From contig JAIYBC010000055.1 in the NCBI GenBank assembly GCA_027488845.1, positions 77,301 to 141,300 of the forward strand: DNA of 64,000 bases. The letters run 5' to 3'. The notes under the pieces were generated by a model. The model saw nothing but the letters and a program-made list of their open reading frames with translations. It did not search any database and was not told the DNA's origin. Positions 4,026 through 54,504 of this stretch are shown here, piece by piece. This stretch comes from Verrucomicrobiales bacterium. Its GTDB lineage: Bacteria > Verrucomicrobiota > Verrucomicrobiia > Limisphaerales > UBA9464. Positions within the stretch are counted from its first letter, which is position 1. Every line of letters begins with the position of its first letter. The translations under genes were made by a program, and so were the position numbers.

Positions 4026-7000
4026 TCTCCGCCCTCATCCGTTGGTCGCTCGCGAACCGCTTCCTGGTGCTGTGCGCCGCGTTGGCCGTCGCCGGCTTTG
4101 GCGTACGCGCGGTCCGGGACACGCCGGTCGACGCCATTCCCGACCTGAGCGAAAACCAGGTGATCGTGTACGCCGACTGGGCCGGCCGCAGCCCGAGGGA
4201 GGTGGAGGACCAGGTCACGTTCCCGTTGTCTTCGGGGCTCCGCGGCCTCGCCGGCGTCCGCGGCGTCCGGGCCACCAGCATGTTCGGGTTCTCGGTGATC
4301 ACGGCGATCTTCGAGGACTCCATGGACAACTACTTCGCCCGGACCCGCGTGCTCGAGCGGCTCAGCCAGCTGACGGGGCAGCTGCCGGCGGGCGTGGTGC
4401 CCCAGATGGGGCCGGATGCCACGGGTCTCGGATGGGTCTTCCAATACCATCTCACCGTGGACCCGACGAAGGCTCCCGATGGCGGATACGACCTGGGACG
4501 CCTCCGGGCGATCCAGGACTGGTTCGTGCGATTCGAGCTCGGTTCCGTTCCCGGAGTGGCCGAGGTGGGTTCCATCGGCGGCTTCGTCCGGCAATACCAG
4601 GTCGAGGCCTCCTCGAGCCGGCTCCGCGAACGGGGACTCGCCCTCGGCGACGTGCTCGCCGCGGTCGGTCGGGCGAACCTGAACGTGGGCGGCAAGGTGA
4701 TCGAGGAGAACGGCCTCGAGCTGGTCGTCCGCGGCGTGGGACTGGTGCGTTCGGTCGACGACCTGGAGCGGATCGTGGTCGGTTCCGGGACGTCCGCGCC
4801 GGTCTACCTCCGCGACGTGGCCACGGTCCGGATCGGAGGGGAGTTCCGGCGGGGGACCCTGGACGTGGACGGACAGGAAGCGGTGGGTGGTGTCGTCGTG
4901 ATGCGCAACGGCGAGAACGCGCGCGAGGTCATCCGACGTGTCCAGGAGCGGATCGCGAAGATCCGCCCCAGCCTGCCGGAAGGTGTCGGCATCGAGCCGT
5001 TCTACGACCGTTCCGACCTCATCGACCGCACGCTCGACACCCTCCGGCACGCGCTTTGGGAGGAGGTGCTCCTGGTCACCCTGGCCCACATCCTCTTCCT
5101 CTGGCATTTCCGCAGCATCCTGATCGTCACCCTGCCGCTGCCCCTCTCGATCCTCGTGGCGTTCGTTCTGATGCAGGTCTTCGGCATCTCCTCGAACATC
5201 ATGTCGCTGACCGGCATCGCCATCGCGATCGGCGTGCTGGTGGACGCCGCGATCGTCATGACCGAGAACGTGCTCCGGCACTGTGAACGCGCGGAGGCGG
5301 AATCCCTCGCCCGCGGCGGAGGGCCCCTGGACGCGGCGACGCGCCTGCGGCTCACCCTGGAGGCTTCGGTCCAGGTGGGACGTCCGGTGTTCTTCGCGAT
5401 GGCGATCATCCTCCTCGCGTTCGTGCCGGTCTTCTCGCTGTCGGGTCGGGAAGGGAAGCTCTTCCACCCGCTGGCCTTCACCAAGACCTTCGCGATGCTG
5501 GGTTCGACGGTGTTCGCCGTGACGTTGGTCCCGGTGCTGTGCTCGTTCTTGGTCCGGGGGCCGTTCCACCGCGAGGAGGACAACCTCGTGATGCGGTTCC
5601 TGCTGCGGCTCTACGACCCGGTCCTGGATGCGGCACTCCGCTGGCGCAGGACCGTCCTGGGCCTTGCCGGCCTGATGCTCGCGGCGGCGTTGGTCGTGGC
5701 CTTCGGCTTGCCGAGGCCGCTGCAGCAACGCGTGGAATCCGTCATGCCCCGTGGACTGGCCTCGCTGACCCGCGGCATGGGAAGCGAGTTCATGCCGCCT
5801 TTGGACGAGGGTTCGCTGCTCTTCATGCCGGTGCTGGCGCCGGGCACGTCGCTCACCCAGGTGAAGGAGATCCTCGCCTGGCAGGACCGCGAGATCCGGC
5901 AGCTGCCCGAGGTCGCGAAGGTCGGCGGCAAGCTGGGACGCTTCGAGACCGCGACCGACCCGGCCCCGGTGGAGATGATCGAGACGACCATCCTGCTGAA
6001 GCCCGAATGGATCGCCACGAACCGTCTCTGGCTGGGCTTCATCCCGGTCCCGTCGACGGTCCGCAACCCGGAGTGGCGGCCCGGTATCACCCGCAGGGAG
6101 ATCGTCGACGAGCTGAGTCGCCGGCTTTCGGCGGTGCCGGGCTACGTCCCGGGATTCCTCCAGCCGATCGAGAACCGGCTGCTCATGCTCAGCACCGGCA
6201 TCCGCGCACAGCTTGGGGTCAAGGTGCTCGGCGACGACCTCGACGCCCTGCAGCGCATGGCCTTCGAGGTCGAGCGGGTGGTGCGGACGGTGCCGGGAGC
6301 CGTCGGCGTCGCGCCCAGCCGCGTCCAAGGCAAACCGTATCTCGAGATCGAGGTCGACCGCGTCCGCGCCGGCCGCTTCGGACTCGATGTCCAGGACGTG
6401 TTGGAGGTGGTGGAGACCGGCATCGGTGGCACCACCGTGGGAAACACCATCGAAGGCCGTGAACGGTATCCCATCCAGGTCCGGCTCGAGGCGTCCGAAC
6501 GCGGCGACATCGACCGTCTCGGCGAACTGCTCATCCCGACCCGTGAAGGGGCCGCGATCCCGCTGGCCCTGGTGGCGGACATCCGCCGTGTGCCGGGGCC
6601 GGGCGAGATCGCCAGCGAGAACGGCCGGCTGCGGGTCTTCGTCCAGGCCAACGTCCAGGACCGCGACCTCGCCGGCTTCGTCGAGGAGGTCCAGGAACGG
6701 CTCGAACGGGAGATCGTTCCGCGGCTGGGGAAGGGGATGACGCTCGAGTATTCCGGGGAACATGAGAACCAGATCCGCGCCGCCCGGACGCTGCGCTGGA
6801 TGGTGCCGGTCGTGATCGGAGTGATCTTCGTGCTGCTCCGGATGGTCTACAATTCCACCCGCGAAGCCGCCCATGTGCTGCTCGCCGTCCCCTTCGCCCT
6901 TTCCGGAGGGGTCTTCCTCCAATGGTGGCTCGGCTGGAACTTCAGCGTCGCGGTCTGGGTCGGCTACATCGCCCTTTTCGGGACCGCGATCCAGACCGGC

Positions 7001-30424: not shown

Positions 30425-30829
30425 GGGATCGGCTTGGGATCCTGTGGACCGACGGCGCCACGGCCAAGCGAGGAATGGGTGGAATTCCGCGGAAACCGGG
30501 CGTCCTCGGCGATGTTGACACCGCGGGGCCGGGGTGACACTTGTCGGCGGTCGGTAGCAGCCTAAGTCATCCGCCTTCCTGCGGAGTGACGCGGGGGAAC
30601 CAACTTCCGCGGAGCGATCCGCGGACGGGGCGAACGGCACCGGGCAACCGGGGCCAAGGTCACTTCCAAGACCAAGCCCGTCAGCTAACCCCGTCGGCAA
30701 CTGGAAGGGCGAACCTCTAGCCCCGCCGCGTGGCGGGGATCCACGTTCACCCCGTTAGAAACCGCATGGCGGCCTCGTGCCGTCGTGCCCCGGTCCGACG
30801 CGCCCCGGCGTGGCGGACCTCTGACTGCC

Positions 30830-31106: not shown

Positions 31107-32894
31107 ATGACCGCTGTCATTTCCGTCGCGGGTGCCGCCATCACGGCAGGCTGGATCCTGCTGGGCTTGCTCGTCCTCTACTGGCTCCTCGGCCTGGTCC
31201 TCATCGACGAGCGCCAGGTGGGCGTCGTCGTGAAGCGCTTCGCCTCGAAGTCCCTCCAGCCCGGACGCCTCGTCGCCCTCGACGGGGAGGCCGGCTACCA
31301 GGCGGACACGTTGGCTCCGGGCCTCCATTTCGGCTACTGGCGCTGGCAGTACCAGATCCTGAAGGTGCCCGTCACCGAGGTCGCCCCGGGCGGGATCGCG
31401 CTCGTGGTGGCCGCGGACGGCGCCCCCATCCCGCCCGAACGGATCCTCGGCCAGGTGGTGGACTGCGACGACTTCCAGGATGCCCGGAAGTTCCTTGTGA
31501 ATGGCGGTGAACGCGGGCGTCAGCTCGGCTTGATCACGGCCGGCACCTACCGCATCAACACGGCGCTGTTCACGGTGATCACCGCGATCCAGGCGCCTTC
31601 CCACGGCATGAGCCCGGGCGCCTTGTTCGTCCAGCGGGTGGAGCCGGACATGGTGGGCATCGTCACCACGCTGGACGGTCGCCCCATCGATCCGGGCGAG
31701 ATCGCCGGCCCCGTGGTGGCCAACCATGACAACTTCCAGAACGCCCAGGCGTTTCTCGATGGCGGCGGACGTCGCGGCCTCCAGGAGCAGGTGCTTCTCA
31801 GCGGCAGCTGGAACCTCAACCCGTGGTTCGCCCAGGTGGAGCAGGTGCGCATGGTGGAGGTGCCCATCGGGTCGGTCGGCGTGGTGATCTCCTACGTCGG
31901 CGCGGCGCATGTCGACGTCAGCGGCACCGACTTCAAGCACGGCGACCTGGTCAACGTGGGCCACAAGGGCGTGTGGGTTTCGCCGCTCTATCCGGGACGC
32001 CATCCGCTGAACACGCACATCATGAAGGTGGAGCTGGTGCCCACCACCAACATCGTCCTGAACTGGGCCTCGCGGACGGAGTCGCACCACTACGACGCCA
32101 AGCTCTCGTCGATCACCGTGCGGTCCTGCGACGGCTTCGCCTTCAACCTCGACGTCTCGCAGATCATCCATGTCGGGGCGCTCGACGCTCCCAAGGTGAT
32201 CTCGCGGGTGGGCTCGATGCAGAACCTGGTGGACCACGTCCTGCAGCCGATCGTGGGCAACTACTTCCGCAACTCCGCCCAGGACTACACCGTGCTCGAC
32301 TTCCTCGGCGCCCGCAGCCAGCGGCAGGTCGAGGCGGCCTCGCACATCCGCACGGCGTTGGCGGCCTACGACGTCCAGGCGATCGACACGCTGATCGGCG
32401 ACATCAACCCGCCGGGCGAGCTGATGCAGACCCAGACCGACCGCAAGATCGCCGAGGAACAGCGCAAGACCTACGAGGTGCAGGAGGCCGCCCAGGTGCA
32501 ACGCCAGCAGTTGGTGCGGCAGACCTCGATGGCGGACATCCAGCAGCAGGTGGTCGGTGCGGAGCAGGGGGTGAACATCGCCGAGCTGAAGTCCAACGCG
32601 CACATCAAGCAGGCCACCGGCGAAGCCGAGGCGATCCGCCTCCGTTCGATCGGCGAGGCCGAGGCCATCCGGGCGACCGGTTCGGCCAAGGCCGAGGCGT
32701 ATCGGTCGGGCGTGGAGGCCCTGGGCGCCCAAGGCTACACCCTGATGCAGATGATGCAGATCGTCGGCGAGCGGAACGTGCGGATCGTCCCGGATGTCGC
32801 CGTGACCGGCGCCGGCGGGCAGGCCGGCCTGGTGGAAGGCCTGCTCGGCACGCTGCTGCGGAAGGAAACCGTCGCCATCGCGTCCAAGGCGTGA
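31107..32894 (+). CDS. flotillin-like SPFH/band-7 family protein
   Basis: An N-terminal TM anchor, an SPFH domain, and a long Ala/Glu/Gln-rich coiled-coil C-terminus (EAEAIRLRSIGEAEAIRATGSAKAEAYRSG). Confidence 0.85.
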   Translation: MTAVISVAGAAITAGWILLGLLVLYWLLGLVLIDERQVGVVVKRFASKSLQPGRLVALDGEAGYQADTLAPGLHFGYWRWQYQILKVPVTEVAPGGIALVVAADGAPIPPERILGQVVDCDDFQDARKFLVNGGERGRQLGLITAGTYRINTALFTVITAIQAPSHGMSPGALFVQRVEPDMVGIVTTLDGRPIDPGEIAGPVVANHDNFQNAQAFLDGGGRRGLQEQVLLSGSWNLNPWFAQVEQVRMVEVPIGSVGVVISYVGAAHVDVSGTDFKHGDLVNVGHKGVWVSPLYPGRHPLNTHIMKVELVPTTNIVLNWASRTESHHYDAKLSSITVRSCDGFAFNLDVSQIIHVGALDAPKVISRVGSMQNLVDHVLQPIVGNYFRNSAQDYTVLDFLGARSQRQVEAASHIRTALAAYDVQAIDTLIGDINPPGELMQTQTDRKIAEEQRKTYEVQEAAQVQRQQLVRQTSMADIQQQVVGAEQGVNIAELKSNAHIKQATGEAEAIRLRSIGEAEAIRATGSAKAEAYRSGVEALGAQGYTLMQMMQIVGERNVRIVPDVAVTGAGGQAGLVEGLLGTLLRKETVAIASKA

Positions 32895-33075: not shown

Positions 33076-33306
33076 ATGGACGAAGCCATCAAGGGAATCC
33101 TGCTCGGAATGTTCCTGCTGGCTGCCGGAGCCTTCGCCTTCGGCGGCGCGGTTTGGCGCTGGGGATTCTACGTCTGCAGCCGCAAGTTTCGGAATCTGGA
33201 GGATTTGATCGGGGTCAAGGCGACCCAATGGTTCCATATCGTGTTGGGCATCGGGTTGATGTGCCTGGGTGTGGTCGTCCTGGTCGTTGTGGCCGTTCCG
33301 CGTTGA
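33076..33306 (+). CDS. small two-TM membrane protein
   Basis: 76 aa with two hydrophobic helices (ILLGMFLLAAGAFAFGGAV; IVLGIGLMCLGVVVLVVVAV). Low confidence. Confidence 0.4.
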   Translation: MDEAIKGILLGMFLLAAGAFAFGGAVWRWGFYVCSRKFRNLEDLIGVKATQWFHIVLGIGLMCLGVVVLVVVAVPR

Positions 33307-33360
33307 GGCTGTGGCAGCCTCCCTTCTCTTCGAAAGACGACAGACCCGTCCCATTCCGCC

Positions 33361-33508
33361 ACGTGACCACGTCTCCTTCGGCGTGCGGGTGTAGGAGACG
33401 ACGTGAGGAGTCTCTGGCCGACTTGCGGGCGTCGTGGATTGGGATTGGTTTCTCGGGGGGACAGAGACTCGTGACCTCGTCTCTTACGGCGTGCAGGGTT
33501 GCGTCATG
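33361..33508 (+). repeat. copy 1 of a repeated ~60-nt intergenic element (units U1-U2-U3 with ACGTG cores at 20-nt spacing), plus an adjacent partial second copy (U1-U2 at 33469-33508)
   Basis: The element reads acgtgaccacgtctccttcg|gcgtgcgggtgtaggagacg|acgtgaggagtctc. Related copies are at 37367-37398 and 42505-42564. The shared core is GTAGGAGACGACGTGAGGAG. Confidence 0.7.
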
Positions 33509-35962
33509 TGCGCGTTCTCATGGTTCCGGTGGAGGGGTGGGTTGACGTTGGCCCTGTGCTTCACTTTGCCTGCCTTCGCCGCGGACCGGACGCCGGCCCG
33601 TCCGAGCCTGAGTGGCATCTACCCGCATCTCGCCATGTTCAATGACGATGGGGAATGCGGCACGGGCGCCGTGGTGCCGTGGGCCGGTCGCCTTTGGGTG
33701 ATCACCTATTCGCCGCACAAGCCCAATGGGTCCACCGACAGGCTCTACGAGATCGACGACGCCCTGAATCCGACCATCCGCCCCGAGAGCGTCGGGGGCA
33801 CGCCGGCCAACCGGATGATCCATGCCGAGTCGCAGCAGCTCCTGATCGGGCCCTATGTGATCGACACGAACCGCCACGTCCGAGTGCTCACGCCCCAGAA
33901 GATGCCGGGTCGCCTCACCGGCACGGCGCGGCACCTGACCGATCCGGCGAACAAGGTCCTCTACGCCACGATGGAGGAGGGGTTTTACGAGGTGGACGTA
34001 CGTTCGCTCGCCGTCACCCGGCTTTACCCGGACGCGAATGGCGATGCCGGCGGCCATGCCGGGGCGCTGCTGCCGGGCTATCACGGCAAGGGCCTGTACT
34101 CCGGGCAGGGCCGGCTGGTGTACGCGAACAACGGCGAACTTTCCCGGGATGCCCAGACGCGTCCGGACATCGAGTCGGGCTGCCTCGCGGAATGGGACGG
34201 GACGAACTGGACCGTGGTCCGGCGCAACCAGTTCACCGACGTCTCCGGCCCCGGCGGCATCGCGGGCAACGCCCATGCCGCCACGGATCCGCTCTGGAGC
34301 ATCGGCTGGGACCACCGTTCGCTGATCCTGATGCTCCGCGACGGCGGGCGCTGGCAGACGTTTCGCCTGCCGAAGTCGAGCCACTCCTACGACGGCGCGC
34401 ACGGCTGGAACACCGAGTGGCCGCGCATCCGGGACATCGGCGAAAAGGATCTGCTGATGACGATGCACGGCCAGTTCTGGCGTTTCCCGAAGACCTTCTC
34501 CGCCGCAAACACGGCCGGCATCCGACCGCGCTCCAGCTACCTGAAGGTCGTGGGCGACTTCGCCCGTTGGCACGACCGGGTCGTCCTCGGCTGCGATGAC
34601 ACGGCGAAGAACGAGTTCCTGAACAAGCGTGCCGCCAAGGGCGCCCTTGCCGGACCGGGCCAGTCGCAGTCGAACCTCCAGTTCGTGGACCCCGCGCAGC
34701 TCGACCGCATCGGTCCGCCCCTGGGCCGCGGTGCGGTGTGGTGGAACGAGTCGGTGAAGGCGGGAGTTCCAAGCGATGCGTTCCTGTTCGCGGGCTTCGC
34801 CGAACGTGGCCTGCACCTGGCGCACGGCGAGGCGGCGCCCGTGACATTCACGCTGGAAACCGGCGACGCCCGCGGGCGCTGGAGAACCCTGCGATCCGTG
34901 ACCGTGCCGGCCCACGGCGCGCAGTGGATCGCCTTCCGGCCATCCGATCCTGGCGAATGGATCCGGCTCACCACGGACCGCGACGCGGCCCTGGTGTCCG
35001 CCCAGTTCCAGTACTCGGCCGAGGATTCCCGTTCGGCTCAGGCGGACTCCGTGTTCGCGGGCGTGGCGCCGGCGGAGGCGACGGACTATTCCGGTGGCGT
35101 CATCCGCACCCGCGGCGACAATCTGCGAACCCTCGCCTTTGCGGCCACCTCGGTTCGAGGCGGCCGGGCCGTGGGCGAGGGCTTTTACGAACTTGGCGCC
35201 GACCTGAAGCTGGTGCGGCGGAACGATCCGGCCGCCCTCGCGTGGACCAAGGCGAACACGGCGGTTCCCGCCGGCGTGCTGCGCGTGGACGCCGCCAGCG
35301 TGGTCTTCACCGACGACCGTGGGAGACGCTGGCGCCTGCCCAAGGGAGCCGCTGCGTTGGCCGGAGACGCCGCGTTGCCCCTGCGCGTGGACCGCGAGGT
35401 CTGCACCGAGCGCGACCTCTTCCAGGCCATGGGCACCTTCTACGAACTCCCGGCGGAGAATGCCGGAGGCTTCGCCAAGGTGCGTCCCATCACGACGCAC
35501 AACCGCCGCATCACCGACTATTGTTCGTATCGCGGCCTTCTCATCCTCTCCGGCGTCGCCACGGATGCACCGGCCGGAACTCCCCATGTCATCCGCTCCG
35601 AGGATGGTGCGGTCGCGTTGTGGGCCGGGGCGGTGGATGATCTGTGGCGCTTCGGCAAACCCCGCGGCCACGGCGGGCCGTGGATGGAAACCGCGGTGAA
35701 GGCGGGCGAACCGTCCGACCCGTATCTCATGACCGGCTACGACGAGAAGCGCCTCCGTTTGTCCCACGCAGAACGTGAGCCGGTGACCCTCCGCGTCGAG
35801 GTGGACCCCACCGGGAGCGGCGTTTGGCGGCCGTATCGGTCGTTTGCCGTGAAGCCGGGTGCGACCGTGAAGCACACCTTTCCGGAATCCTTCCACGCCT
35901 ATTGGGTGCGGGTCGTCGCCGACCGCGACGGCCGCGCCACCGCGCAGTTGGAGTATCGCTGA
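33506..35962 (+). CDS. large hypothetical secreted protein (818 aa)
   Basis: Start at MCAFSWFRWRGGLTLALCFTLPAFAADR (signal peptide). I recognise no family. Confidence 0.6.
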   Translation: MCAFSWFRWRGGLTLALCFTLPAFAADRTPARPSLSGIYPHLAMFNDDGECGTGAVVPWAGRLWVITYSPHKPNGSTDRLYEIDDALNPTIRPESVGGTPANRMIHAESQQLLIGPYVIDTNRHVRVLTPQKMPGRLTGTARHLTDPANKVLYATMEEGFYEVDVRSLAVTRLYPDANGDAGGHAGALLPGYHGKGLYSGQGRLVYANNGELSRDAQTRPDIESGCLAEWDGTNWTVVRRNQFTDVSGPGGIAGNAHAATDPLWSIGWDHRSLILMLRDGGRWQTFRLPKSSHSYDGAHGWNTEWPRIRDIGEKDLLMTMHGQFWRFPKTFSAANTAGIRPRSSYLKVVGDFARWHDRVVLGCDDTAKNEFLNKRAAKGALAGPGQSQSNLQFVDPAQLDRIGPPLGRGAVWWNESVKAGVPSDAFLFAGFAERGLHLAHGEAAPVTFTLETGDARGRWRTLRSVTVPAHGAQWIAFRPSDPGEWIRLTTDRDAALVSAQFQYSAEDSRSAQADSVFAGVAPAEATDYSGGVIRTRGDNLRTLAFAATSVRGGRAVGEGFYELGADLKLVRRNDPAALAWTKANTAVPAGVLRVDAASVVFTDDRGRRWRLPKGAAALAGDAALPLRVDREVCTERDLFQAMGTFYELPAENAGGFAKVRPITTHNRRITDYCSYRGLLILSGVATDAPAGTPHVIRSEDGAVALWAGAVDDLWRFGKPRGHGGPWMETAVKAGEPSDPYLMTGYDEKRLRLSHAEREPVTLRVEVDPTGSGVWRPYRSFAVKPGATVKHTFPESFHAYWVRVVADRDGRATAQLEYR

Positions 35963-36051
35963 GCGGCCAAGACTAGGGGGCTGCACACGTATCGCGGGAA
36001 TTGCGGCATCCGTTGACCGAGGCACGCCCCGGCCTTGAGAGTCGAATCCCG

Positions 36052-37365
36052 ATGAGAGTCCCCCTCCTGTTGCTTGCGGGAATCGCGGTCGGAGCCGCCC
36101 GCGTCCCGGCCGCTGGATCGACGAATCCGCCGCCCGTGGTCACGGCGATCCGCGCCGCCCGCTGGCTGCGGGTCGAGTCCGGCGAGGTGGTCTCGAACGC
36201 CGTGGTGCTGGTCTCGGAAGACCGGATCGTGGACGCCGGAGCCGCTGGGAAAGTGGTCGTGCCGGCCGACGCGAAGGTCATCGACCTCCCGCGTGGCACG
36301 CTGCTGCCCGGCCTCATCGACGGTCACACCCACCTGACCTTCGACGTCGAGCCGGGTTGGGAGAACGGGTCGGTCCGCGAGTCCGCCGCCGAGTCGGCCC
36401 TGCGCGGTGCGCGCAATGCGGCGGTCACGTTGCTTTCCGGCTTCACCACCGTCCGCAACCTCGGTGCCGAAGGCTTCGCGGACGTGGCCTTGGCGAAGGC
36501 CGTGGAGAAGGGCTGGGTCATCGGACCGCGGATCGTGCCCTGCGCCCATGTGCTGAGCCCGACCGGAGGTCCGGGGGACAACGACGGCTTCATTCCGGGC
36601 GTGGTCGAGCGGGGCTACCGCCAGGGAGTCGCGGACGGCGTGGAGGCGGCGGTTGCGGCGGTCCGTTACCAGATCAAGCACGGCGCGAAGGTCGTGAAGG
36701 TGATGGCCACCGCAGGGGTGATGTCCTTCGAGGGCACCGCGGGTGCCCAGCAGTTCTCCGAGGCGGAACTGCGGGCGATCTGCGAGGAAGCCCACCGACA
36801 TGGCGTCCGGGTCGCGGCGCACGCGCACGGACCGGAGGGGATCGAGGCGGCGATCCGGGCCGGCGTGGACTCCGTCGAGCACGGTTCGCTGATGGGCGAC
36901 GCCGGGATCACCCTGATGAAGGAGAAGGGGACCTGGCTCGTGCCGACCCTGGCCACCTGGTACTGGGACCAGTTCACCCCGGAGGACAGCTATCCGGCGG
37001 CGATGTGGAAGAAGATCCGCTCGATGGGTCGGCTCCGTGTGGATTTCCAGAAGAAGGCCATCGCGGCCGGCGTGAAGGTGGCGCTGGGCTCGGACGCGGG
37101 CACATATCCACACGGGAAGAACAACCTGGAGTTCTGGCAGCTCACGGAGTTCGGGCTGACGCCGCTGCAGGCAGTCCAGGCCGGCACCATCCGCGCGGCG
37201 GAGATGCTGGGGATGGAGAAGGAGATCGGTCGGGTCTCTCCCGGATTCCTCGCCGACCTGGTGGTGGTGGACGGCGATCCGGTGGCCGACATCCGGGCGA
37301 TGGAACGCGTCGGCTTCGTGATGAAGGGCGGCGTGGTCTACACGAACGCGTGGAGACCGAAGTAG
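36052..37365 (+). CDS. secreted amidohydrolase family protein (metal-dependent hydrolase)
   Basis: Signal peptide, then the amidohydrolase metal-binding motifs (GLIDGHTHL; VAAHAHGPEG; VEHGS; ALGSDAG). Start at MRVPLLLLAG. Confidence 0.8.
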   Translation: MRVPLLLLAGIAVGAARVPAAGSTNPPPVVTAIRAARWLRVESGEVVSNAVVLVSEDRIVDAGAAGKVVVPADAKVIDLPRGTLLPGLIDGHTHLTFDVEPGWENGSVRESAAESALRGARNAAVTLLSGFTTVRNLGAEGFADVALAKAVEKGWVIGPRIVPCAHVLSPTGGPGDNDGFIPGVVERGYRQGVADGVEAAVAAVRYQIKHGAKVVKVMATAGVMSFEGTAGAQQFSEAELRAICEEAHRHGVRVAAHAHGPEGIEAAIRAGVDSVEHGSLMGDAGITLMKEKGTWLVPTLATWYWDQFTPEDSYPAAMWKKIRSMGRLRVDFQKKAIAAGVKVALGSDAGTYPHGKNNLEFWQLTEFGLTPLQAVQAGTIRAAEMLGMEKEIGRVSPGFLADLVVVDGDPVADIRAMERVGFVMKGGVVYTNAWRPK

Positions 37366-37366
37366 C

Positions 37367-37398
37367 TCGCACGTGTAGGAGACGACGTGAGGAGTCTC
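37367..37398 (+). repeat. copy 2 (short form, U2-U3) of the repeated element
   Basis: gctcgcacgtgtaggagacgacgtgaggagtctc starts 2 nt after the amidohydrolase stop. The U3 tail is identical to copy 1. Confidence 0.65.
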
Positions 37399-37520
37399 AA
37401 ACAGCCGACAAGGATAGGCGGTAGACCGAGGTCCCGGAATTCCCGGGAAGTCCGTCTGCGATGGGCCGTGGATTCGGGCGGGGGTAGGCGTTCCGTAACC
37501 CTCGGCCGGGTCGGATGCGG

Positions 37521-38243
37521 TCAACCGCCGCCGCGTCTCCGAAGCCGGTTCCATCCCGCGCAGGCCGCGACGGCCACGATGGCGGTCCAAGTCGAGGACT
37601 CCGGCACGGCCGTCGCGCCCGAAAGGGTCAACGACCAGCTTTCCAGTCGCATCTGTCCGCCCAATTCGAGGTCCGCCACGTTCAGCCGCCACAGACCGTT
37701 TCCGTCCTGTCCGTGGAAGACCGCCAAGGACAAGGGCCGTTGGGTGTCGGCCGGCTGCACCCGGCCATCCGGTTGGAAGGCTCCGGCGAGGATCCCATCC
37801 AGCAGGGTCGCCCCGTGGATGTCCCCTCCCACGGCGTCGTCGGCGAGGGTCACATCCCAGCCGTTGTAGCCGTGGCCGATCGGATCCCCGAGGGAGATGC
37901 CCACGCCGTTGATCAGGTTCGCCGTCCGGAGCTCGGTGGATCCAGCCACGTCGAGCACCTGCGACAACGAGACGAACATCTCGCTGGCGAAACCGCCCAC
38001 CCCGTCCACGCCGCGTAGCACCAGACCGACCTCGACTCTGGATACGGACCGGATCGACGAGTCGACAACCTCGATGTCGAAACCCACCGGTACCGGTTGG
38101 TCGTCGGCGAGCGTGTAGCCGATGGACTGGAAGCGTGACGCCTCGGAGACGAAGTCCGCCCAGGCGGAGCCGCTGACGAGCAGGGCCGCTCCCAGGGTTG
38201 GTGCGAATCGGGAGAACCGGGGACAGAAAGGGAAGGGCTTCAT
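37521..38243 (-). CDS. PEP-CTERM sorting-domain protein with a proprotein-convertase P-domain-like beta-sandwich
   Basis: A signal peptide and a C-terminal VPESSTWTAIVAVAACAGWNRLRRR, which has the PEP motif, a TM helix and an Arg cluster. Its start overlaps the upstream gene's stop (38240-38243). Confidence 0.75.
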   Translation of the reverse strand: MKPFPFCPRFSRFAPTLGAALLVSGSAWADFVSEASRFQSIGYTLADDQPVPVGFDIEVVDSSIRSVSRVEVGLVLRGVDGVGGFASEMFVSLSQVLDVAGSTELRTANLINGVGISLGDPIGHGYNGWDVTLADDAVGGDIHGATLLDGILAGAFQPDGRVQPADTQRPLSLAVFHGQDGNGLWRLNVADLELGGQMRLESWSLTLSGATAVPESSTWTAIVAVAACAGWNRLRRRGGG

Positions 38244-39025
38244 GGCTGGGATACGGCGCGGTAGAGGCGCATCGGGGAGGTGGTTGTGGGATCAACCTGA
38301 CGGAAGACGCCGTTGGTTCCCGCGGTTGTCGAACCGGGAAGGTTGCTCCAGACGCGGGGAGGCAGGAGGTCGTCGGTGAACTGGACCCGGTAGGTCCGGT
38401 ACGGCACGCCGATGAAGAGGATCTCGATCTCGGCTCCGGTGTGCCGGAGTCGCAGCGCGTTCGGGGCGGACTCGGGCTCGCCGGGAACGGAGAACCTCAG
38501 CCGGACGGTGCCGAATGCCCGGTGCGAGGAACCGGCTTGGCCGTCGGAGACGACATACCGGAACTCGTCGTCGCCGGGAGGACCCGCAGGCGGTTGGTAC
38601 ACCAGCCACGAACCGACCCGGGCGATTGACCCGCCGCGTTCGGTGGTGTTCGACCAGCCTTCGAGGATCAACCCGTAGCCCAACAGCGAGCGGTCGTCGG
38701 CCACGAGCGAGGCCAACGGGATCTTCACGGAACGGCCCGCCTGGAACTCCGCGACGTCCTCGGTCGGCGCGACCACCGATCTCAACGTGAGGACGTTCCA
38801 GAAGCCGGAGTGCAGGAGGAACCCGGACGTGGAGCGGGTCGACGTGCCCGCGACCGCCTGGCCCACGCTGCCCGAGAGGGCGAAGCAGGAACCGGAGGCC
38901 GAGGCGGAACCGTGGAAGGAGCCCCGCACGAGGCCGAACTCCGCGCGCAGACGCGAGGCGGCGGGCACCAGCGACAGGCCGACGCCGAGGGCGTAGGCGC
39001 AGGAACGGAATCGGGAGGTCTTCAT
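38240..39025 (-). CDS. hypothetical secreted protein
   Basis: Start at MKTSRFRSCAYALGVGLSLVPAAS (signal peptide); the ORF-track upstream extension is unlikely to be genic. It is 22 nt downstream of the tail-fiber-like gene, and its stop overlaps the next gene's start. Confidence 0.55.
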   Translation of the reverse strand: MKTSRFRSCAYALGVGLSLVPAASRLRAEFGLVRGSFHGSASASGSCFALSGSVGQAVAGTSTRSTSGFLLHSGFWNVLTLRSVVAPTEDVAEFQAGRSVKIPLASLVADDRSLLGYGLILEGWSNTTERGGSIARVGSWLVYQPPAGPPGDDEFRYVVSDGQAGSSHRAFGTVRLRFSVPGEPESAPNALRLRHTGAEIEILFIGVPYRTYRVQFTDDLLPPRVWSNLPGSTTAGTNGVFRQVDPTTTSPMRLYRAVSQP

Positions 39026-39047
39026 CGCGGTGTTGGAACCTTCCGGA

Positions 39048-42000
39048 TCAGGGACGTGCGGCGCCGGCGCGTTGGACGAGCTGCTCGACCAGGCCGCGGA
39101 GCGATTCGAGATCCCGGCGGAGAGCGCGGTTTTCGGCCTGTTCGATCTCCAGCGCCTCAGCCAGTTCACGGGTGCGGTGATGCAGGCCCTGGATCGCGGC
39201 CAGCGCGACCCCGTCTGCGTCGACCGTGGCGATCGAGCGGTCGGAGGCGCCGAGTCCAAACGCCGCGTGGAAGTCCTGTGCCATCGGGCCGAGGTGCGGC
39301 GTCGCCGACGGGTCGTTCGTGTAGTGCCAGGTCTGGACCGAAAGTGCGGCCACCTTCTCCAGCACCGCCGCGACGTCCACGTCGGCGAACCCGGCCTTCT
39401 TGTTCCGGTCGCTCAGGGTGACAAAGGAGGTCGCGGCGACATGCCCCGCATTCTCGATGGCGACGACCCAGTCCGTCGCGTTCCCGAAGCGGGCCAGGCG
39501 GCCGCTGTCCGCCGAGACATTCAGGGCGCCGTCGTTCGAGGTCCCGCGGCCGTTGATCCGGAGCGCCGGGCTCGCGTTCGAGTTGGTGCTCATGTTCTCG
39601 ATGTGCACCACCGCCGACCGATAGTCCCCCGTCCGGCTCCCGACGAGGTTCGCAGCCCGGTTGCCTGCCGGCGCAGCCACGGAGAGGGTCCCTCCGGCGG
39701 TCAGTGCATTGCTGACAGTCAATGTCGCCGGGATGGTCACATCGCCCCCGAAGACGCTGTCGGCGTTCTGGTCCCATCGCAGGGCGAAGGTCTGTCCGAA
39801 GCGGGTCGATCCCAGGGCGCCACCGCTGTAGCCGTAGAGGACGGGGCCATCCACGGCCACACCGGCGAACGGACGTTGGGTCCCTCCGAACCAGCCGAGT
39901 CCGTGGTTGGTGTCCGAGCCGGCCCTCAGGAACAGGTCGTGGTCGGAAAGCCGCAGGTCGGAGGCAAGGACGGGGTTGCCGTCCAGGCGCGCCAGGTTGG
40001 CTCCGAGCCGAGCGTCGGGCACGGTGCCGGAGGCGAGTTGGGAGGCATTGAGGTCGGTCAGCAGGGATCCGGATCCCCTGAGGTCCGTGGCGTCGACAAA
40101 TCCTCCGATGATGTGCTCCGCTTGGACTGAGTCGGCATAGACCCCCCCATTGGAAACCATGAGCGATCCTCTTGGCAGTCTTACGTCTCCATCCGACTCC
40201 CAAGAGAGCGCGATTTGTTGACCTTCCGAAGTCGAGCCCAAGGCGCCACCTTCGTTGCCGTAGAGCACCGGGCCGTCCACGGCGACCCCTGCGAAGGTGC
40301 GCGGGGCACCACCGAACCATCCGAGCCCGTGGGCCTTGTCGGTCCCACCTCGCAGGAGCAGGTCCTTGTCGGAGAGACGGATGTCGGAGGAGAACACGGG
40401 AAAGCCATCCAGGCGCGGGATGTTCGTCCCGATCCGTGCGTCGGGAAGGATGCCCGAGGTGATTTTGGCGCCATCCAGTCCCGGGATCCGGGAATCGGAA
40501 AGGGTGCCACTCACGATCTTTGACGCATCCAGGTCCGGGATTCGGGCCGCATTGAAGACGCCCGCAACGACCTTGGATGCATTCAGGTCCGGAACCCGGT
40601 CGGTATCGAAGATGCCGGTCGTGATCTTGGACGCGTCGAGGTCCGGGATCCGCGCTGAAGCGAAGACTCCGGAGCCGACGTTCGAAGCGACGAGGTTGGT
40701 GATCTCAGAACCGTCTCCCAGGAATCGTTGCGCACTGACCCCGCCCTGGAAGTTCGCAGTGCTATCGAGCCTTGCGAAGCGAGCCTCTCCATCCGATTCT
40801 GAGACGATGACTAGATGATCTCCGGCCAGTCCACCGGATATCGAGATCACTTTACCCTGTATGCTGGGCATCTGAAAATTACCCCATCCCACTACCTCGC
40901 CATTGCTTTTTAATGCAACACACCCACTCCTAAACGACTCAATTGCAACAACATTGCTCAAGCCGATAGGTACATTCAGGTGCGGTATAATTGGAATGAA
41001 TTGGGAATTTATGTAGCGGGTCGCTCGAACGGTTCCGTCTGGCAAAAGGTATACAAAGGCCCCTGAATTCATTCTGCAGTCGACGATGTTTCGCTGGAAC
41101 ACGTTCGAAAAGCTTGGTTCTTCAAGGGTTCCGTGCGAATTATAGCCAACTCGAGCACCGGATCTGGAGATGATGATGTATTCCTCCATTGAAAAGGTTG
41201 CTATATTTGTATAGCTGTTTGATTGGAATCCCCAAGTCCGTAGGGTTCCGTCTCTGGTAAGTGCTCCTGATCTCCTGTAACCAGCCGCAATCTTCACGAT
41301 GTTGGAAAGCCCCGATGGTATGTTACATTGACCTACACTGTTATCACCCCAGGCGAGGAGTTGGCCTTCCTTGTCCAAGGCCAAGATGTGATCGACACCC
41401 ACTGCCACATCCACGATTCCGGTCTTGGTGGAGGCGATCGAAAGGAGGCCGTTTTGATCCGGACTTCCTGGAATCAGCCGACCATCTCGAGTCAAACCAA
41501 CGATGACCTCGCCCACGGCCACCTTGGTGATTTCCCGTTCTGTGGTTGGGAATCCTAGGAAACTTGGGTAGTGAAAGTTTGAGATCACCTGAACCGACGC
41601 GGATCGGTTTCGGAGCCCTGCTGCGGCGATATTGGTCAGTCCAGCCCCGTTTCCAGTGAACACCCCTCCTGTGATCCGGCTCGCATCCAGTTCCGGCACC
41701 TGTGCGGCCGCCAGAACCCCGGTGACCTGGGATGCCGAAACCGTCCCGCTGAGGGCCGACGCCGTGGCGGCGGTCGTGGCCGTCGACGCGGACTGGGCGC
41801 TGATCGCGGTCGCTGCATGGATTGCATACGGCGTCGGGGACACCGGTTGGCGGGTCGGCAGCGTCTCGTACGCCAATGCGCCGTTGGTTCGGATCCCGAT
41901 CTCAAGCCACCGGGCGGCTCCGTTGAACCGGGGGCCGAAGTCCAGGGTCGCCTGGAAGAGGCCGTTGGTGAGGGTCAGGGCCGCGGCGTCCACCACGGGT

Positions 42001-42209
42001 CCCTGCTGTTCGCCGGCGGTCGCCGCGTCCCAAAGTGTGAAACGCAGGTCGTACACCCCGTTTGCGGCGGAGGGGCCGTCGGTGAGTTGGCCTTGAAAGC
42101 CGAAAGCCGTGCCCTGGGCGGCTGCCCGCACAAGGCCCAGGGCGAGGGCGACGAGAAGTATCCAGTTCCGCGATCCAGACTTGGGGCGGAGGAAAAGTGG
42201 CCGGTGCAT
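39048..42209 (-). CDS. secreted tail-fiber-domain protein: RCC1-like beta-propeller, IPDLDASKI-type 14-aa repeats, duplicated ~145-aa module, C-terminal peptidase-S74 intramolecular chaperone domain
   Basis: Signal peptide MHRPLFLRPKSGSRNWILLVALALG. RCC1-like blades include LAWGDNSVGQCNIPSGLSNIVKIAAGYRRSGALTRDGTLRTWG. Five tandem repeats follow the pattern RIPDLDASKI(V/T)SG. Two copies of SD(I/L)RLSD.DL.LR.G.D..HGLGWFGG..R.FAGVAVDGPVLYG..GGALGST are present. The C-terminal SDRNKKAGFADVDVAAVLEKVAALSVQTWHYTNDPSATPHLGPMAQDF...IQGL matches the auto-cleaving chaperone domain of phage tail spikes and fibres. Confidence 0.8.
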   Translation of the reverse strand: MHRPLFLRPKSGSRNWILLVALALGLVRAAAQGTAFGFQGQLTDGPSAANGVYDLRFTLWDAATAGEQQGPVVDAAALTLTNGLFQATLDFGPRFNGAARWLEIGIRTNGALAYETLPTRQPVSPTPYAIHAATAISAQSASTATTAATASALSGTVSASQVTGVLAAAQVPELDASRITGGVFTGNGAGLTNIAAAGLRNRSASVQVISNFHYPSFLGFPTTEREITKVAVGEVIVGLTRDGRLIPGSPDQNGLLSIASTKTGIVDVAVGVDHILALDKEGQLLAWGDNSVGQCNIPSGLSNIVKIAAGYRRSGALTRDGTLRTWGFQSNSYTNIATFSMEEYIIISRSGARVGYNSHGTLEEPSFSNVFQRNIVDCRMNSGAFVYLLPDGTVRATRYINSQFIPIIPHLNVPIGLSNVVAIESFRSGCVALKSNGEVVGWGNFQMPSIQGKVISISGGLAGDHLVIVSESDGEARFARLDSTANFQGGVSAQRFLGDGSEITNLVASNVGSGVFASARIPDLDASKITTGIFDTDRVPDLNASKVVAGVFNAARIPDLDASKIVSGTLSDSRIPGLDGAKITSGILPDARIGTNIPRLDGFPVFSSDIRLSDKDLLLRGGTDKAHGLGWFGGAPRTFAGVAVDGPVLYGNEGGALGSTSEGQQIALSWESDGDVRLPRGSLMVSNGGVYADSVQAEHIIGGFVDATDLRGSGSLLTDLNASQLASGTVPDARLGANLARLDGNPVLASDLRLSDHDLFLRAGSDTNHGLGWFGGTQRPFAGVAVDGPVLYGYSGGALGSTRFGQTFALRWDQNADSVFGGDVTIPATLTVSNALTAGGTLSVAAPAGNRAANLVGSRTGDYRSAVVHIENMSTNSNASPALRINGRGTSNDGALNVSADSGRLARFGNATDWVVAIENAGHVAATSFVTLSDRNKKAGFADVDVAAVLEKVAALSVQTWHYTNDPSATPHLGPMAQDFHAAFGLGASDRSIATVDADGVALAAIQGLHHRTRELAEALEIEQAENRALRRDLESLRGLVEQLVQRAGAARP

Positions 42210-42504
42210 GACGTCCCCAGTCTTGGGGAACGCCGTGGACGAGTGTCATCGCCCTTAAGGAGGAGACCCAACGGGTCTACGATCGTCCATTCAGGTGATG
42301 TCGTTTCCGCCACGCCAGTATCGTGGCTCGGTTGTTCTGCCGGTTTCCGCCGAGCCTGTCCGCGTCGCCGGGGAAGACGACGGTGCGGCGGATCGGGACC
42401 GCGTCCGGGAGGCCGTCGTCCCGAGGCGGGATGGAAAGCGGCGCCTCCGGGGCTCCGCCCCTGAGCGGGCTGGAAGAGGGGACTGGAAAGCTTGGGAAGG
42501 AGAA

Positions 42505-42564
42505 TCGTGACCTCGCCTGCTACGACGTGCGCGGGTAGGAGACGACGTGAGGAGGTGCCAACTT
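42505..42564 (+). repeat. copy 3 (full U1-U2-U3) of the repeated element
   Basis: tcgtgacctcgcctgctacg|acgtgcgcgggtaggagacg|acgtgaggaggtgcc, with CGTG at 42506, 42526 and 42546. It lies between the enolase stop and the tail-fiber gene start. Confidence 0.7.
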
Positions 42565-42632
42565 CGAGGAACGAGGAAGGCCGCAATCCGTGGGAACGGA
42601 CTGCGGCCTTTGAGCGGGAAGTCCCGGACCGA

Positions 42633-43931
<1,299 letters not shown>

Positions 43932-52462: not shown

Positions 52463-54307
52463 ATGACCTTCCTCGCCCCGGCCGCGTTCCTCTTCGCCCT
52501 GGCCCTGCCGGTGGTGCTGGCGATGTACCTGCTCAAGCGCAGGAGGACGTCCCGGGTGGTTCCGAGCCTCCGGGTGTGGGAACGCTTCCTCGCCGAGAGC
52601 CGCGCCAACAGTCCGTTCCAGAAGCTCCGTCGACAGCTGCTGCTCCTGCTCCAGCTGCTGTTCGTCGCCCTCCTCGTGTTCGCCCTCGCACGGCCGCGGC
52701 TCCAGGGGTGGGTCCGCAAATCGGGCCTCCGGATACTGGTCCTCGACGCCAGCGCCTCGATGCAGAGCACCGACGAGAAGCCATCCCGCTTCGCACGGGC
52801 CCGCGCGGAGGCGATGGCCTTCGTCGACGCGCTGCCTTCGTCCGACGTACAGGCGGTGGTCCTCGTCGCCGGGGCCTCCACCGAAGTGCGCCAGGCCGCC
52901 ACCTCGGATCCCGCCGCCCTGCGCCGCGCGCTCGAAGGGGCGTCGGCCGACGATTCGCCGAACCGGCTGACCGACGCCCTGGCGATCGCCGAGACATTGG
53001 TCCGCAATGTGAGGGACGCCGAGGTGCACCTGTTCAGCGACGGTGCCGTGGGCGGCCTTGAGGCGTTCGCCACCCGGGACCTTCCGCTCGTCTACCACCG
53101 TGTCGGACAACGCGTCCGCAACGTCGGGATCGTCCGCATGGAGGTGCGTTCCGATCCCGAGGATTCCCGTCGCCGCTCCGTCTTCGCCGTGGTGCGCAAC
53201 CCGGGGCCGGAGTCCATCGCCGGCGTGGCGGACCTGCTCCTCGACGGAGCCGTGCTCGAATCGCGCCCGTTCGACATCGCGTCGACCAACGCGCTCGCCC
53301 TGTCCTTCGGCCTGCTTCAGGAGCGCGATGCCGTGGTCTCGGTGAGGCTGGCGGTCGAGGACGACCTCGCCGTGGACAACGAGGTCCGCTGGGTCAGCCG
53401 TCTGCCGCAGCCGGTGAAGGTCCGGTTGGTCACGCAGGGAAACCGTTTCCTCGAGAAGGCCCTGCGCGCGGCCGGTCCCCGGGTCCGGCTCGAGGTGGTT
53501 CCCGACATCGTGCCCGGCATGGAGGACGTCTCGGTCACGGTGTTGGACGACGTGTTGCCGCGCCTCTGGCCGAAATCCGGCGGGGTGCTCGCGATCCATG
53601 CGGTTCCACCGGCGTGGTTCCCGGCCGGCTCGACTCCATTGGAATCCCCGGCCGTCATCGACTGGCGGGGCACCCATCCGCTCCTGCGTTTCGTCGGATT
53701 CGACACGGTCCAGGTCGCCCGGGCCGAATCGGTCGCCACGCCGCCGTGGGCGGAATCCCTGGTCGACTCGCAACGGTCCTCCCTGTTGATGGCCGGCGAG
53801 GTCGGCGGCAACCGCGTCGCGTGGGTCGGCTTCGACCTGCTTCAGAGCACCTGGCCCCTGCGGGTCGGATTCCCGATCTTCGTGGCCAACGCCGTGGAAT
53901 GGCTCGATCCGGAGACACGGCGCGACGCCGGACTCCAGATCCGGCCCGGAGACGCCTTCCGTTGGCCGATCGAAAACCCGGGGACGACGGCCCGGATCGT
54001 CCTGCCCGACCGGTCGTCGGAGTCCGTGCCGCTGGGAAACGGCGCGACCGAGCTGGTCTTCGCCGGGACGGGACGACAGGGACTCTACCGGTTCGAATCC
54101 GGCACCAATGTGGTCACCTTCGCCGCCAACCTCCTCGACCCGCAGGAGACCGACTCAAGGCCCGCGGAATCCCTCGACCTCGGAAAGCGGGGCCGGGTGG
54201 AGGCGGCGGAAGAGGTCCGAGGCGGACAGGAACTCTGGCGCTGGTTCGGGGTGTCCGCCCTGGTCCTGCTGATGCTCGAGTGGTGGTGGTTCCACAGGAG
54301 GACGTGA
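52463..54307 (+). CDS. BatA-like VWA-domain membrane protein
   Basis: The characteristic N-terminal double-TM LKRRR segment (FLFALALPVVLAMYLLKRRRTSRVVPSLRVWERF), a VWA fold (LVLDASASM), and a C-terminal TM. Confidence 0.75.
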   Translation: MTFLAPAAFLFALALPVVLAMYLLKRRRTSRVVPSLRVWERFLAESRANSPFQKLRRQLLLLLQLLFVALLVFALARPRLQGWVRKSGLRILVLDASASMQSTDEKPSRFARARAEAMAFVDALPSSDVQAVVLVAGASTEVRQAATSDPAALRRALEGASADDSPNRLTDALAIAETLVRNVRDAEVHLFSDGAVGGLEAFATRDLPLVYHRVGQRVRNVGIVRMEVRSDPEDSRRRSVFAVVRNPGPESIAGVADLLLDGAVLESRPFDIASTNALALSFGLLQERDAVVSVRLAVEDDLAVDNEVRWVSRLPQPVKVRLVTQGNRFLEKALRAAGPRVRLEVVPDIVPGMEDVSVTVLDDVLPRLWPKSGGVLAIHAVPPAWFPAGSTPLESPAVIDWRGTHPLLRFVGFDTVQVARAESVATPPWAESLVDSQRSSLLMAGEVGGNRVAWVGFDLLQSTWPLRVGFPIFVANAVEWLDPETRRDAGLQIRPGDAFRWPIENPGTTARIVLPDRSSESVPLGNGATELVFAGTGRQGLYRFESGTNVVTFAANLLDPQETDSRPAESLDLGKRGRVEAAEEVRGGQELWRWFGVSALVLLMLEWWWFHRRT

Positions 54308-54317
54308 GGGGGGCCGG

Positions 54318-54403
54318 GTTGAAGGGTTGAACGGTGAAGGGTTGAAAGGTGAAGGGTTGAAGGGTTGAAGGGTTGAAGGGTTGAAGGGGGAAGGGCTGAA
54401 GGG
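54318..54403. repeat. tandem 8-nt repeat (GTTGAAGG)n, ~12 units
   Basis: gttgaagg gttgaacg gtgaagg gttgaaag gtgaagg (gttgaagg)x4 gggaagg gctgaagg. Begins 10 nt after the VWA stop, between convergent genes. Confidence 0.85.
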
Positions 54404-54504
54404 ACAAGTGACAGGGGGAGTAGGTCAGAGGAACGGGAGAAGCGGGGGAGGCCAGCTGCAACTGGCAACAGCCAACGGACCACTGGCAACGGACCAACAG
54501 CAAC

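Follow-up and report, generated by a model that had tools for sequence, protein, structure and literature searches.

Three intergenic loci in a 64,000-nt stretch of DNA from a Verrucomicrobiales bacterium (contig JAIYBC010000055.1; "the window" hereafter, meaning the whole stretch analysed) share a repeated sequence, and we asked what kind of element it represents. An earlier note on this DNA, made from the letters alone, had described a ~60-nt element in four copies, composed of three 20-nt units (U1 to U3) with regularly spaced CGTG cores, and had offered three explanations: binding sites for a regulator, a small structured RNA, or a family of REP-like or recombination sites. REPs (repetitive extragenic palindromes) are short hairpin repeats whose copies are spread through bacterial genomes by a tyrosine transposase dedicated to them, the REP-associated tyrosine transposase (RAYT). 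REPs, their inverted doublets (REPINs), the larger bacterial interspersed mosaic elements (BIMEs) and RAYTs are all well described. Our analysis makes it very probable that the three loci belong to a GTAG-type REP/REPIN family of Verrucomicrobiota with a cognate RAYT. Among the options listed above, only the REP-like one survived, as the repeat is a GTAG-headed covarying hairpin that occurs in inverted doublets and flanks a RAYT-type gene.

The repeated arm and its hairpin

The repeats in the window are real and lie far above chance. The 19-mer TAGGAGACGACGTGAGGAG, which had been said to be identical in three copies, is indeed found exactly at 33392, 37376 and 42536, all on the + strand, while shuffled sequences lead one to expect 0.02 occurrences and none of 100 shuffles reached three. 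CGTGACCNCGYCT is exact at 33362, 33470 and 42506, and the spaced triplet CGTG-N16-CGTG-N16-CGTG occurs in the window only at 33362 and 42506, against an expectation of 0.07. An unsupervised repeat search of the window recovered identical families independently (D5, D16 and D19), and the sequences given in the earlier note were all found where it had placed them.

We scanned one genome per species for the 19-mer, which returned at least 119 stretches from at least 79 assemblies, and assembled a comparison set of 200 related loci (the window against the other 199, L001-L199); the loci fetched through the 19-mer total 0.9 Mb and hold 281 arms of the kind described here. Alignment of the flanks identified the repeated unit as a 24-nt arm, GTAG-GAGAC-GA-C-GTGA-G-GA-GTCTC, with a GTAG head followed by a small predicted hairpin and with copies on both strands. 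The arm is typically followed by 10-55 variable nt and then by an inverted arm ending in ...CTCCTAC, which may be the exact complement or may belong to a second type, whose own strand reads GTAGGAGTCGAGGTGACGAGACTC. Two swaps set the second type apart from the first: A-T becomes T-A at positions 8/21, and C-G becomes G-C at positions 12/17. Because both swaps compensate within one arm, it is the arm itself that should form the hairpin. The predicted fold comprises the GTAG head, a 5-bp stem (positions 5-9 with 20-24), a tandem G.A/A.G step (10-11 with 18-19), pair 12/17 and a GTNA loop.

To avoid circularity in examining this hairpin, we searched all loci with a stem-blind pattern made of the 11 unpaired positions only (GTAG, GA, GT.A, GA), allowing at most one mismatch. 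This search yielded 709 arms, 664 of which can form at least five of the six pairs, compared with 3.5% of random 24-mers of the same DNA. Covariation statistics were computed on 148 distinct arms, with 500 column shuffles and with controls in which the partner was slid by 1-3 columns. Standard pairs filled 85.1% of the cells against 67.1% in the shuffled alignments, a level reached by none of the 500 shuffles, and the covariation score was 0.415 against 0.149 for shuffled columns and 0.03-0.09 for slid partners. Compensatory changes, which the earlier note had suggested looking for, are plentiful, with 148 cells changed on both sides against 59 expected. Pair 8/21 is AU in 54 arms, CG in 33 and UA in 21, and pair 12/17 is CG in 80 and GC in 53. 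The unpaired GTAG, G10 and A11, G13, T14 and A16, and G18 and A19 are at least 90% conserved. The predicted arm hairpin is thus backed by compensatory changes, and the covariation of its stem positions argues for a structural constraint rather than one of sequence reading.

With the arm defined, the three 20-nt units turn out to be a mis-parse, the conserved unit being the 24-nt arm with its GTAG head and small predicted hairpin. U1 corresponds to a - strand arm (33356-33379, 33464-33487 and 42500-42523) read on the + strand, U2 is an 11-nt head-to-head linker joined to the beginning of a + strand arm, and U3 is the remainder of that + strand arm (33391-33414, 37375-37398 and 42535-42558). In place of four copies of a ~60-nt element, the window holds six arms, and the ~60-nt element is a head-to-head arm pair. 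The statement that all copies share one strand holds for the exact 19-mer only, as the arms themselves lie on both strands. The regular spacing of CGTG over 20 nt is present at 33362 and 42506 but is no property of the family. Of the three CGTGs in each full copy, two fall in the loop regions of opposed arms and the middle one falls in the linker, and the linker pattern GRCGTGCNSGG, repeated three times in the window, was found in none of the 199 other loci. The 20-nt periodicity is therefore a by-product of the head-to-head pair of this lineage. Two further candidates were discarded along the way: an RNA stem between U1 and U2/U3 (CGTCTCC/GGAGACG), since it is not kept at locus 3, and small open reading frames starting within the 19-mer from a Shine-Dalgarno sequence and a GTG, since the frames diverge downstream, with one of them running antisense to enolase.

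The arms recovered by the stem-blind search form 235 tail-to-tail pairs with heads outward, separated by a median of 27 nt (quartiles 21 and 43), and 70 head-to-head pairs with linkers of 7-13 nt. Clusters comprise 160 pairs against 113 singlets, and arrays reach 14 arms. The two arms differ at pair 12/17 in 142 of the 235 tail-to-tail doublets, so the arm's own hairpin is better kept than the long hairpin that a doublet could form. Arm density lies between 0.8 and 1.8 per 10 kb, the higher figure coming from flanks at a distance from the RAYT gene, and the window has six arms in 64 kb; extrapolated from these partial genomes, it corresponds to hundreds of arms per genome. Several loci also contain longer composite repeats that include the arm (units of ~190 nt or ~1.1 kb) or dense arrays (L013 107-503, L005 1287-2402, L172, L183 and L190), which suggests secondary amplification of REP-containing blocks.

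The Y1/HUH gene bracketed by arms

We searched for a transposase with an E. coli RAYT sequence that served as a tblastn lure only, every match being re-tested by Pfam, NCBIfam and fold search. Weak matches of the lure directly adjoin arms in several loci. An open reading frame at 1597-2166 of L077 is bracketed by arms, its homologues in L106, L081 and L010 are each no more than ~60 nt away from one, and arms stand on both sides of the gene in all four loci. In addition, alternating arm arrays stand beside the gene, for example in L121, L129 and L183.

We then picked 80 metagenome loci through the Y1/HUH protein, independently of the repeat, and scanned them for arms. Where the flanks are long enough, the 300 nt upstream of the gene contain an arm in 74 of 75 loci and the 300 nt downstream in 70 of 73; in 66 of 68, both flanks do. 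The layout is oriented as well: in 72 of 74 loci the upstream arm is on the + strand and the downstream arm on the - strand, so that the heads point outward. Often, ~21 nt separate the stop codon from the downstream arm.

The protein encoded by this gene has the marks of a Y1/HUH enzyme. An alignment of 33 homologues showed an invariant H69-x-H71 (DHIHL) and an invariant Y128-x3-N132-P133, and the NCBIfam profile REP_Tyr_transpos matches over 9-145 of its 146 positions with an E value of 3e-9. A confident AlphaFold model of the protein (pLDDT 89.1, pTM 0.85) found as its top fold match in the PDB the entry 4ER8, E. coli RAYT with a REP hairpin (E 1e-8, TM 0.59/0.67); IS200/IS605 TnpA structures came next at 1.5e-4 or worse. 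The family is large, with 1,451 homologue clusters, and is mostly named 'hypothetical' at NCBI and often 'REP element-mobilizing transposase RayT' at JGI. Taken together, the bracketing, the motifs and the fold predict that the arm-flanked Y1/HUH protein is a divergent cognate RAYT. A more canonical RAYT at 7115-7807 of L087 (REP_Tyr_transpos 81.5 bits, above the cut-off) was not used, since the nearest arm is 1.4 kb away and arms do not bracket this gene. REP-bearing genomes may thus hold more than one RAYT lineage, the second presumably paired with another REP.

By analogy with E. coli RAYT and with IS200/IS605 TnpA, including the enzymes of IS608 and ISDra2, the single-copy Y1/HUH enzyme would bind the arm hairpin with its GTAG head in single-stranded DNA and cut near the head. 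The RAYT, whose own gene is bracketed by the same arms, would copy or move doublets to new intergenic sites. Inverted tail-to-tail doublets would fold into one long hairpin, as in a REPIN, and would sometimes be chained through short head-to-head linkers in a BIME-like manner. Any effects on neighbouring genes, such as protection of mRNA 3' ends or an influence on translation, would be secondary.

Window layout, spread and alternative readings

In the window, where arm mismatches were scored against the pattern GTAGGAGNCGANGTNANGAGNCTC, locus 1 is an intact doublet with a decayed arm, locus 2 a lone arm, and locus 3 a partly eroded head-to-head pair; all arms are intergenic by gene calls. Locus 1 opens with the decayed arm at 33356-33379 (GAAGGAGACGTGGTCACGTGGCGG on the - strand), which has five mismatches, a GAAG head instead of GTAG and a lost outer stem. 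It is joined by the 11-nt linker GGCGTGCGGGT (33380-33390), which carries the middle CGTG and has relatives at 42524-42534 and 33488-33499, to a perfect + strand arm at 33391-33414. This arm, GTAGGAGACGACGTGAGGAGTCTC, has no mismatch, is the commonest arm sequence among the matches listed from the assemblies, at least 79 in number, and forms the left half of the tail-to-tail doublet. A 49-nt spacer or loop (33415-33463), whose ends CTCTG and CAGAG lengthen the long stem, leads to the right half, a second-type arm at 33464-33487 (GTAAGAGACGAGGTCACGAGTCTC on the - strand) with one mismatch, which ends 18 nt upstream of the ATG at 33506. What had been taken for a partial second copy of the element is this second-type arm. 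The two arms differ at pair 12/17 (G-C on the right, C-G on the left), and the right arm retains its own predicted hairpin. When folded as DNA, the doublet (33387-33491) gave -20.5 kcal/mol with a z-score of -3.5, and none of 200 shuffles was equally stable. A linker-like copy, GGCGTGCAGGGT, follows at 33488-33499 with no + strand arm after it, and can be compared with 33380-33390 and 42524-42534.

The arm of locus 2 (37375-37398, + strand) has no mismatch and no partner. It begins 9 nt past the TAG stop (37363-37365) of an amidohydrolase gene, as assigned by Pfam, and is intergenic in public gene calls. Locus 3 begins with a - strand arm at 42500-42523 (GTAGCAGGCGAGGTCACGATTCTC), the left member of the head-to-head pair, which has two mismatches and a weakened stem and for which no stable hairpin is predicted when it is folded alone. 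The 11-nt linker GACGTGCGCGG (42524-42534) connects it to a + strand arm at 42535-42558, also with two mismatches, whose last four bases are GTGC instead of TCTC. This arm has lost the 3' half of its stem, is predicted to form no hairpin and has no downstream partner; the enolase stop (42633) is on one side of it and the start of a 1053-aa gene (42209) on the other.

As for the surrounding genes, Pfam gave no match for the 818-aa protein encoded downstream of locus 1 (33506-35962). Genes for secreted-looking proteins are clustered between loci 2 and 3, at 39048-42209, 38240-39259 and 37521-38243, all on the - strand. The cluster includes the 1053-aa protein, which carries RCC1 repeats and, at its C terminus, an endosialidase-chaperone (Peptidase_S74) domain; a protein with a Big_9 Ig domain; and a 240-aa protein that matches the proprotein-convertase P-domain weakly and has a PEP-CTERM-like tail. 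Elsewhere in the window, a tandem array of 8-nt units at 54292-54408 (+) consists of GGGTTGAA and variants such as GGTGAAG and is preceded by GGAGGACGTGAGGGG, which loosely resembles the REP core and failed the arm search. A c-di-AMP riboswitch (Rfam RF00379, 52.2 bits) at 30549-30714 (+) lies ~390 nt upstream of a 595-aa SPFH/Band 7 (flotillin-like) open reading frame at 31107-32894, an unusual gene class for this riboswitch.

Beyond the window, the exact 19-mer is present in at least 79 species-level assemblies, nearly all from Verrucomicrobiota. Among the matches listed, the assembly titles are mostly Verrucomicrobiota, Verrucomicrobiia, Limisphaerales, Pedosphaera or subdivision 3; about a dozen are titled differently, among them 'Klebsiella', 'Bifidobacteriaceae' and 'Akkermansia muciniphila' with a GC content of 65-66%, and are presumably mislabelled bins. 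The assemblies bearing the 19-mer span 48-68% GC, and over this range the arm stays constant while spacers and linkers are rewritten. The GC content of the window itself is 67.8%, whereas the other 199 loci have a median of 57.6%, and the window's doublet spacer is GC-rich where those of the other loci are AT-rich, with the arm core unchanged. The RAYT proteins, moreover, are only ~63-75% identical to one another, while the 19-mer is identical throughout. Possibly, though we put this forward tentatively, the arm and its RAYT represent an exceptionally old and strongly constrained REPIN-RAYT partnership, in which the 19-24-nt arm has been kept without a change of letter across an order-level or wider span of Verrucomicrobiota, while its RAYT drifted to ~65% identity and the doublet spacers were wholly rewritten. 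If so, the arm sequence itself would be under selection, whether because the enzyme reads a non-canonical G.A/GTNA hairpin or because the arm has an additional function for the host, and the family would be a good model of REPIN persistence outside Proteobacteria.

In strains about 98.9-100% identical to the window, the arms of loci 1 and 2 are unchanged; the locus 1 doublet is also found in strains L213 and L214, and the locus 2 arm in L213-L216. L213 and L214 are 98.85% identical to window positions 33390-40611, and homology stops 1 nt before the GTAG head at 33391. Past the 33390/33391 junction lies a low-GC segment with a large serine recombinase of 496-500 aa (Resolvase and Recombinase domains; L213 7198-8708, L214 7198-8720) and an HTH protein, and the TAG stop of the recombinase is the TAG of the REP head. 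The segment looks like an integrated element whose junction abuts the REP. A further break is seen in L205 (98.5% identical), which matches the window only from the enolase stop (42631) on, ~70 nt from locus 3. Past enolase (5980-6200), L205 has different genes (a 139-aa open reading frame and a DHH-family protein) and no REP arms, where the window (42558-42633) has the head-to-head REP pair and the 1053-aa gene.

Several observations weigh against the assignment to a REP/RAYT family. No transposition event and no clean empty site was seen in the close strains, in which loci 1 and 2 are fixed, and the RAYT gene is absent from the 64-kb window. The Y1/HUH protein scores below the family cut-offs (36.9 against 80 bits for NCBIfam, 17.4 against 23 bits for Pfam Y1_Tnp), and a PDB search with its sequence returned only noise, which is why the search by fold was needed. 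A single arm, at -2.7 kcal/mol with a z-score of -0.8 in a nearest-neighbour DNA model, is not exceptionally stable, so the case for the small hairpin is made by covariation and not by stability. Finally, 32% of the arm clusters in other genomes lie within a long open frame, against 67.5% of random windows, by an open-frame test that is crude in GC-rich DNA; 'extragenic' here accordingly means depletion from open frames and not exclusion.

Among the alternatives, the one that survives best, although we consider it rather unlikely, is that the arms are kept mainly for host use, as protectors of mRNA 3' ends, modulators of termination or translation near stop codons or sites for nucleoid proteins, with the RAYT as a means of upkeep. 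The identity of the 19-mer amid diverging RAYTs and the conservation of the unpaired positions would suit such a role, as would the short distance of the locus 2 arm from a stop codon, which has counterparts in other genomes (e.g., L116 and L118), and host roles of REPs are established in E. coli (background in PMC3733652 and PMC3479197). Recognition by the RAYT explains the conserved unpaired bases equally well, however, and the arms stand in either orientation to their neighbours: locus 3 is flanked by two - strand genes, while locus 1 lies upstream of a + strand gene. Host use is compatible with the REP/RAYT explanation and not opposed to it.

A structured cis-regulatory RNA or small RNA family, riboswitch-like in kind, is very improbable. 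The compensatory changes, the GTGA loop, which is GNRA-like, and the tandem G.A step are features often met in RNA, and locus 1 sits in a probable 5' leader. Yet Rfam gave no match at the gathering score at the three loci and none at E<=1 on 33300-33560, its only matches in the window being tRNA and the c-di-AMP riboswitch, both away from the repeats. The arms lie on either strand and in intergenic spacers that are 5', 3' or convergent in position, the reverse complement of each arm forms the same predicted hairpin, and the association with a predicted DNA-cutting HUH enzyme is near-obligate. The suggestion of a structured RNA thus becomes unlikely in view of the two strands, the mixed gene contexts and the Rfam result.

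We regard it as similarly improbable that the arms are attachment or recombination sites of integrative elements, marking island junctions for a serine recombinase. The L213/L214 junction, ending 1 nt before a GTAG head and sharing its TAG with the recombinase stop, speaks for such sites, as does the second synteny break near locus 3. There is only one clean junction, however, most arms lie in ordinary intergenic spacers with no recombinase nearby, and the gene that is consistently bracketed encodes the Y1/HUH protein and not a serine recombinase. Other mobile elements are known to insert beside or into REPs, and such insertions require no special role of the REP.

Least probable of all is a direct-repeat array of ACGTG cores, 20 nt apart, for an oligomeric transcription regulator, which the two CGTG triplets in the window would favour but which is contradicted by the non-equivalence of the three CGTGs, the lineage-specific linker (other genomes keep the arm with unrelated linkers of 7-13 nt), the structural constraint on the stem, the extrapolated hundreds of copies per genome and the flanking transposase-like gene.

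The REP/RAYT reading bears on annotation, in that such loci should be labelled REP/REPIN repeats rather than regulatory sites or genes for RNAs. In Limisphaerales-type genomes, hundreds of sites will be masked by the 24-nt pattern. REP/REPIN repeats also fragment metagenomic assemblies. RAYT specificity and the long-term persistence of REPINs also become testable in a second phylum, because a hairpin backed by covariation, a large and mostly 'hypothetical' protein family and a widely conserved arm are all at hand there.

Comparison with known systems

The IS200/IS605 elements, with the TnpA of IS608 and ISDra2, share with the present system a Y1/HUH enzyme and, as its target (here a predicted one), small imperfect DNA hairpins on single strands, and they supplied the next-best fold matches. 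Here, by contrast, large numbers of hairpins are scattered apart from the gene, while the gene is single and bracketed by arm arrays; no TnpB or other IS605 partner adjoins the Y1/HUH gene in the loci examined.

The resemblance to REPINs and BIMEs is closer. Two inverted arms with a spacer form one long predicted hairpin (33391-33487), doublets are the commonest form beside singlets and eroded arms, and the alternating arrays beside the RAYT gene resemble BIMEs. The spacers differ from those of REPINs in being short and variable in both length and sequence, and heterodimers are in the majority.

Within the same phylum, Di Nocera 2013 (PMC3733652) reported GTAG REPs from the verrucomicrobium Opitutus terrae. 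According to that paper, tail-to-tail spacers vary and head-to-head spacers are conserved within a genome, and 'heterodimers' occur. GTAG-17 to GTAG-20 of that species agree with our arms in phylum, in GTAG class and in this spacer rule. The REP-encoded peptides that the paper lists for O. terrae (VGPALAAG, GTGVPPV and HGRHARAT) fit no frame of the present arm, so its sequence differs from the O. terrae REPs listed by peptide. GTAGGAG and GACGTGAGG are absent from the text and the searched supplements of PMC3733652, and identity with GTAG-17, GTAG-20 or another O. terrae family is still conceivable. A full-text search of about 8 million papers with the arm 17-mer gave no match.

The closest parallel is the GTAG REP class of Nunvar 2010 (PMC2817692), in which RAYT genes are flanked by inverted REPs with GT(A/G)G heads. 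The earlier statement that the repeat fits no described motif is therefore wrong at the level of class, since the class is that of PMC2817692 and PMC3733652. The REPs of PMC2817692 are likewise imperfect palindromes of 20-40 nt with a GT(A/G)G head and compensatory changes, and the heptamer GTAGGAG is common to the verrucomicrobial arm and to those of Pseudomonas entomophila, P. putida W619 and Xanthomonas. Their RAYT genes are also bracketed by opposed REPs, often no more than ~20 nt from the stop, and encode proteins with HUH and Tyr motifs and a RAYT-like fold. The differences lie in the host, here Verrucomicrobiota, whereas an origin within Gammaproteobacteria was proposed there; in the short 5-bp stem, broken here by a conserved tandem G.A step; in the protein, here ~16% identical to E. 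coli RAYT and below the Pfam and NCBIfam cut-offs; and in the arm, nearly invariant here over at least 79 species-level assemblies, whereas REPs differ between species in the table of PMC2817692. The arm family is thus no new kind of element but a REP-RAYT pair outside Proteobacteria, in a phylum that has received little study, and what is unusual about it is the constancy of the arm across so many species-level assemblies, together with a large cognate protein family that stays under the Pfam and NCBIfam thresholds.

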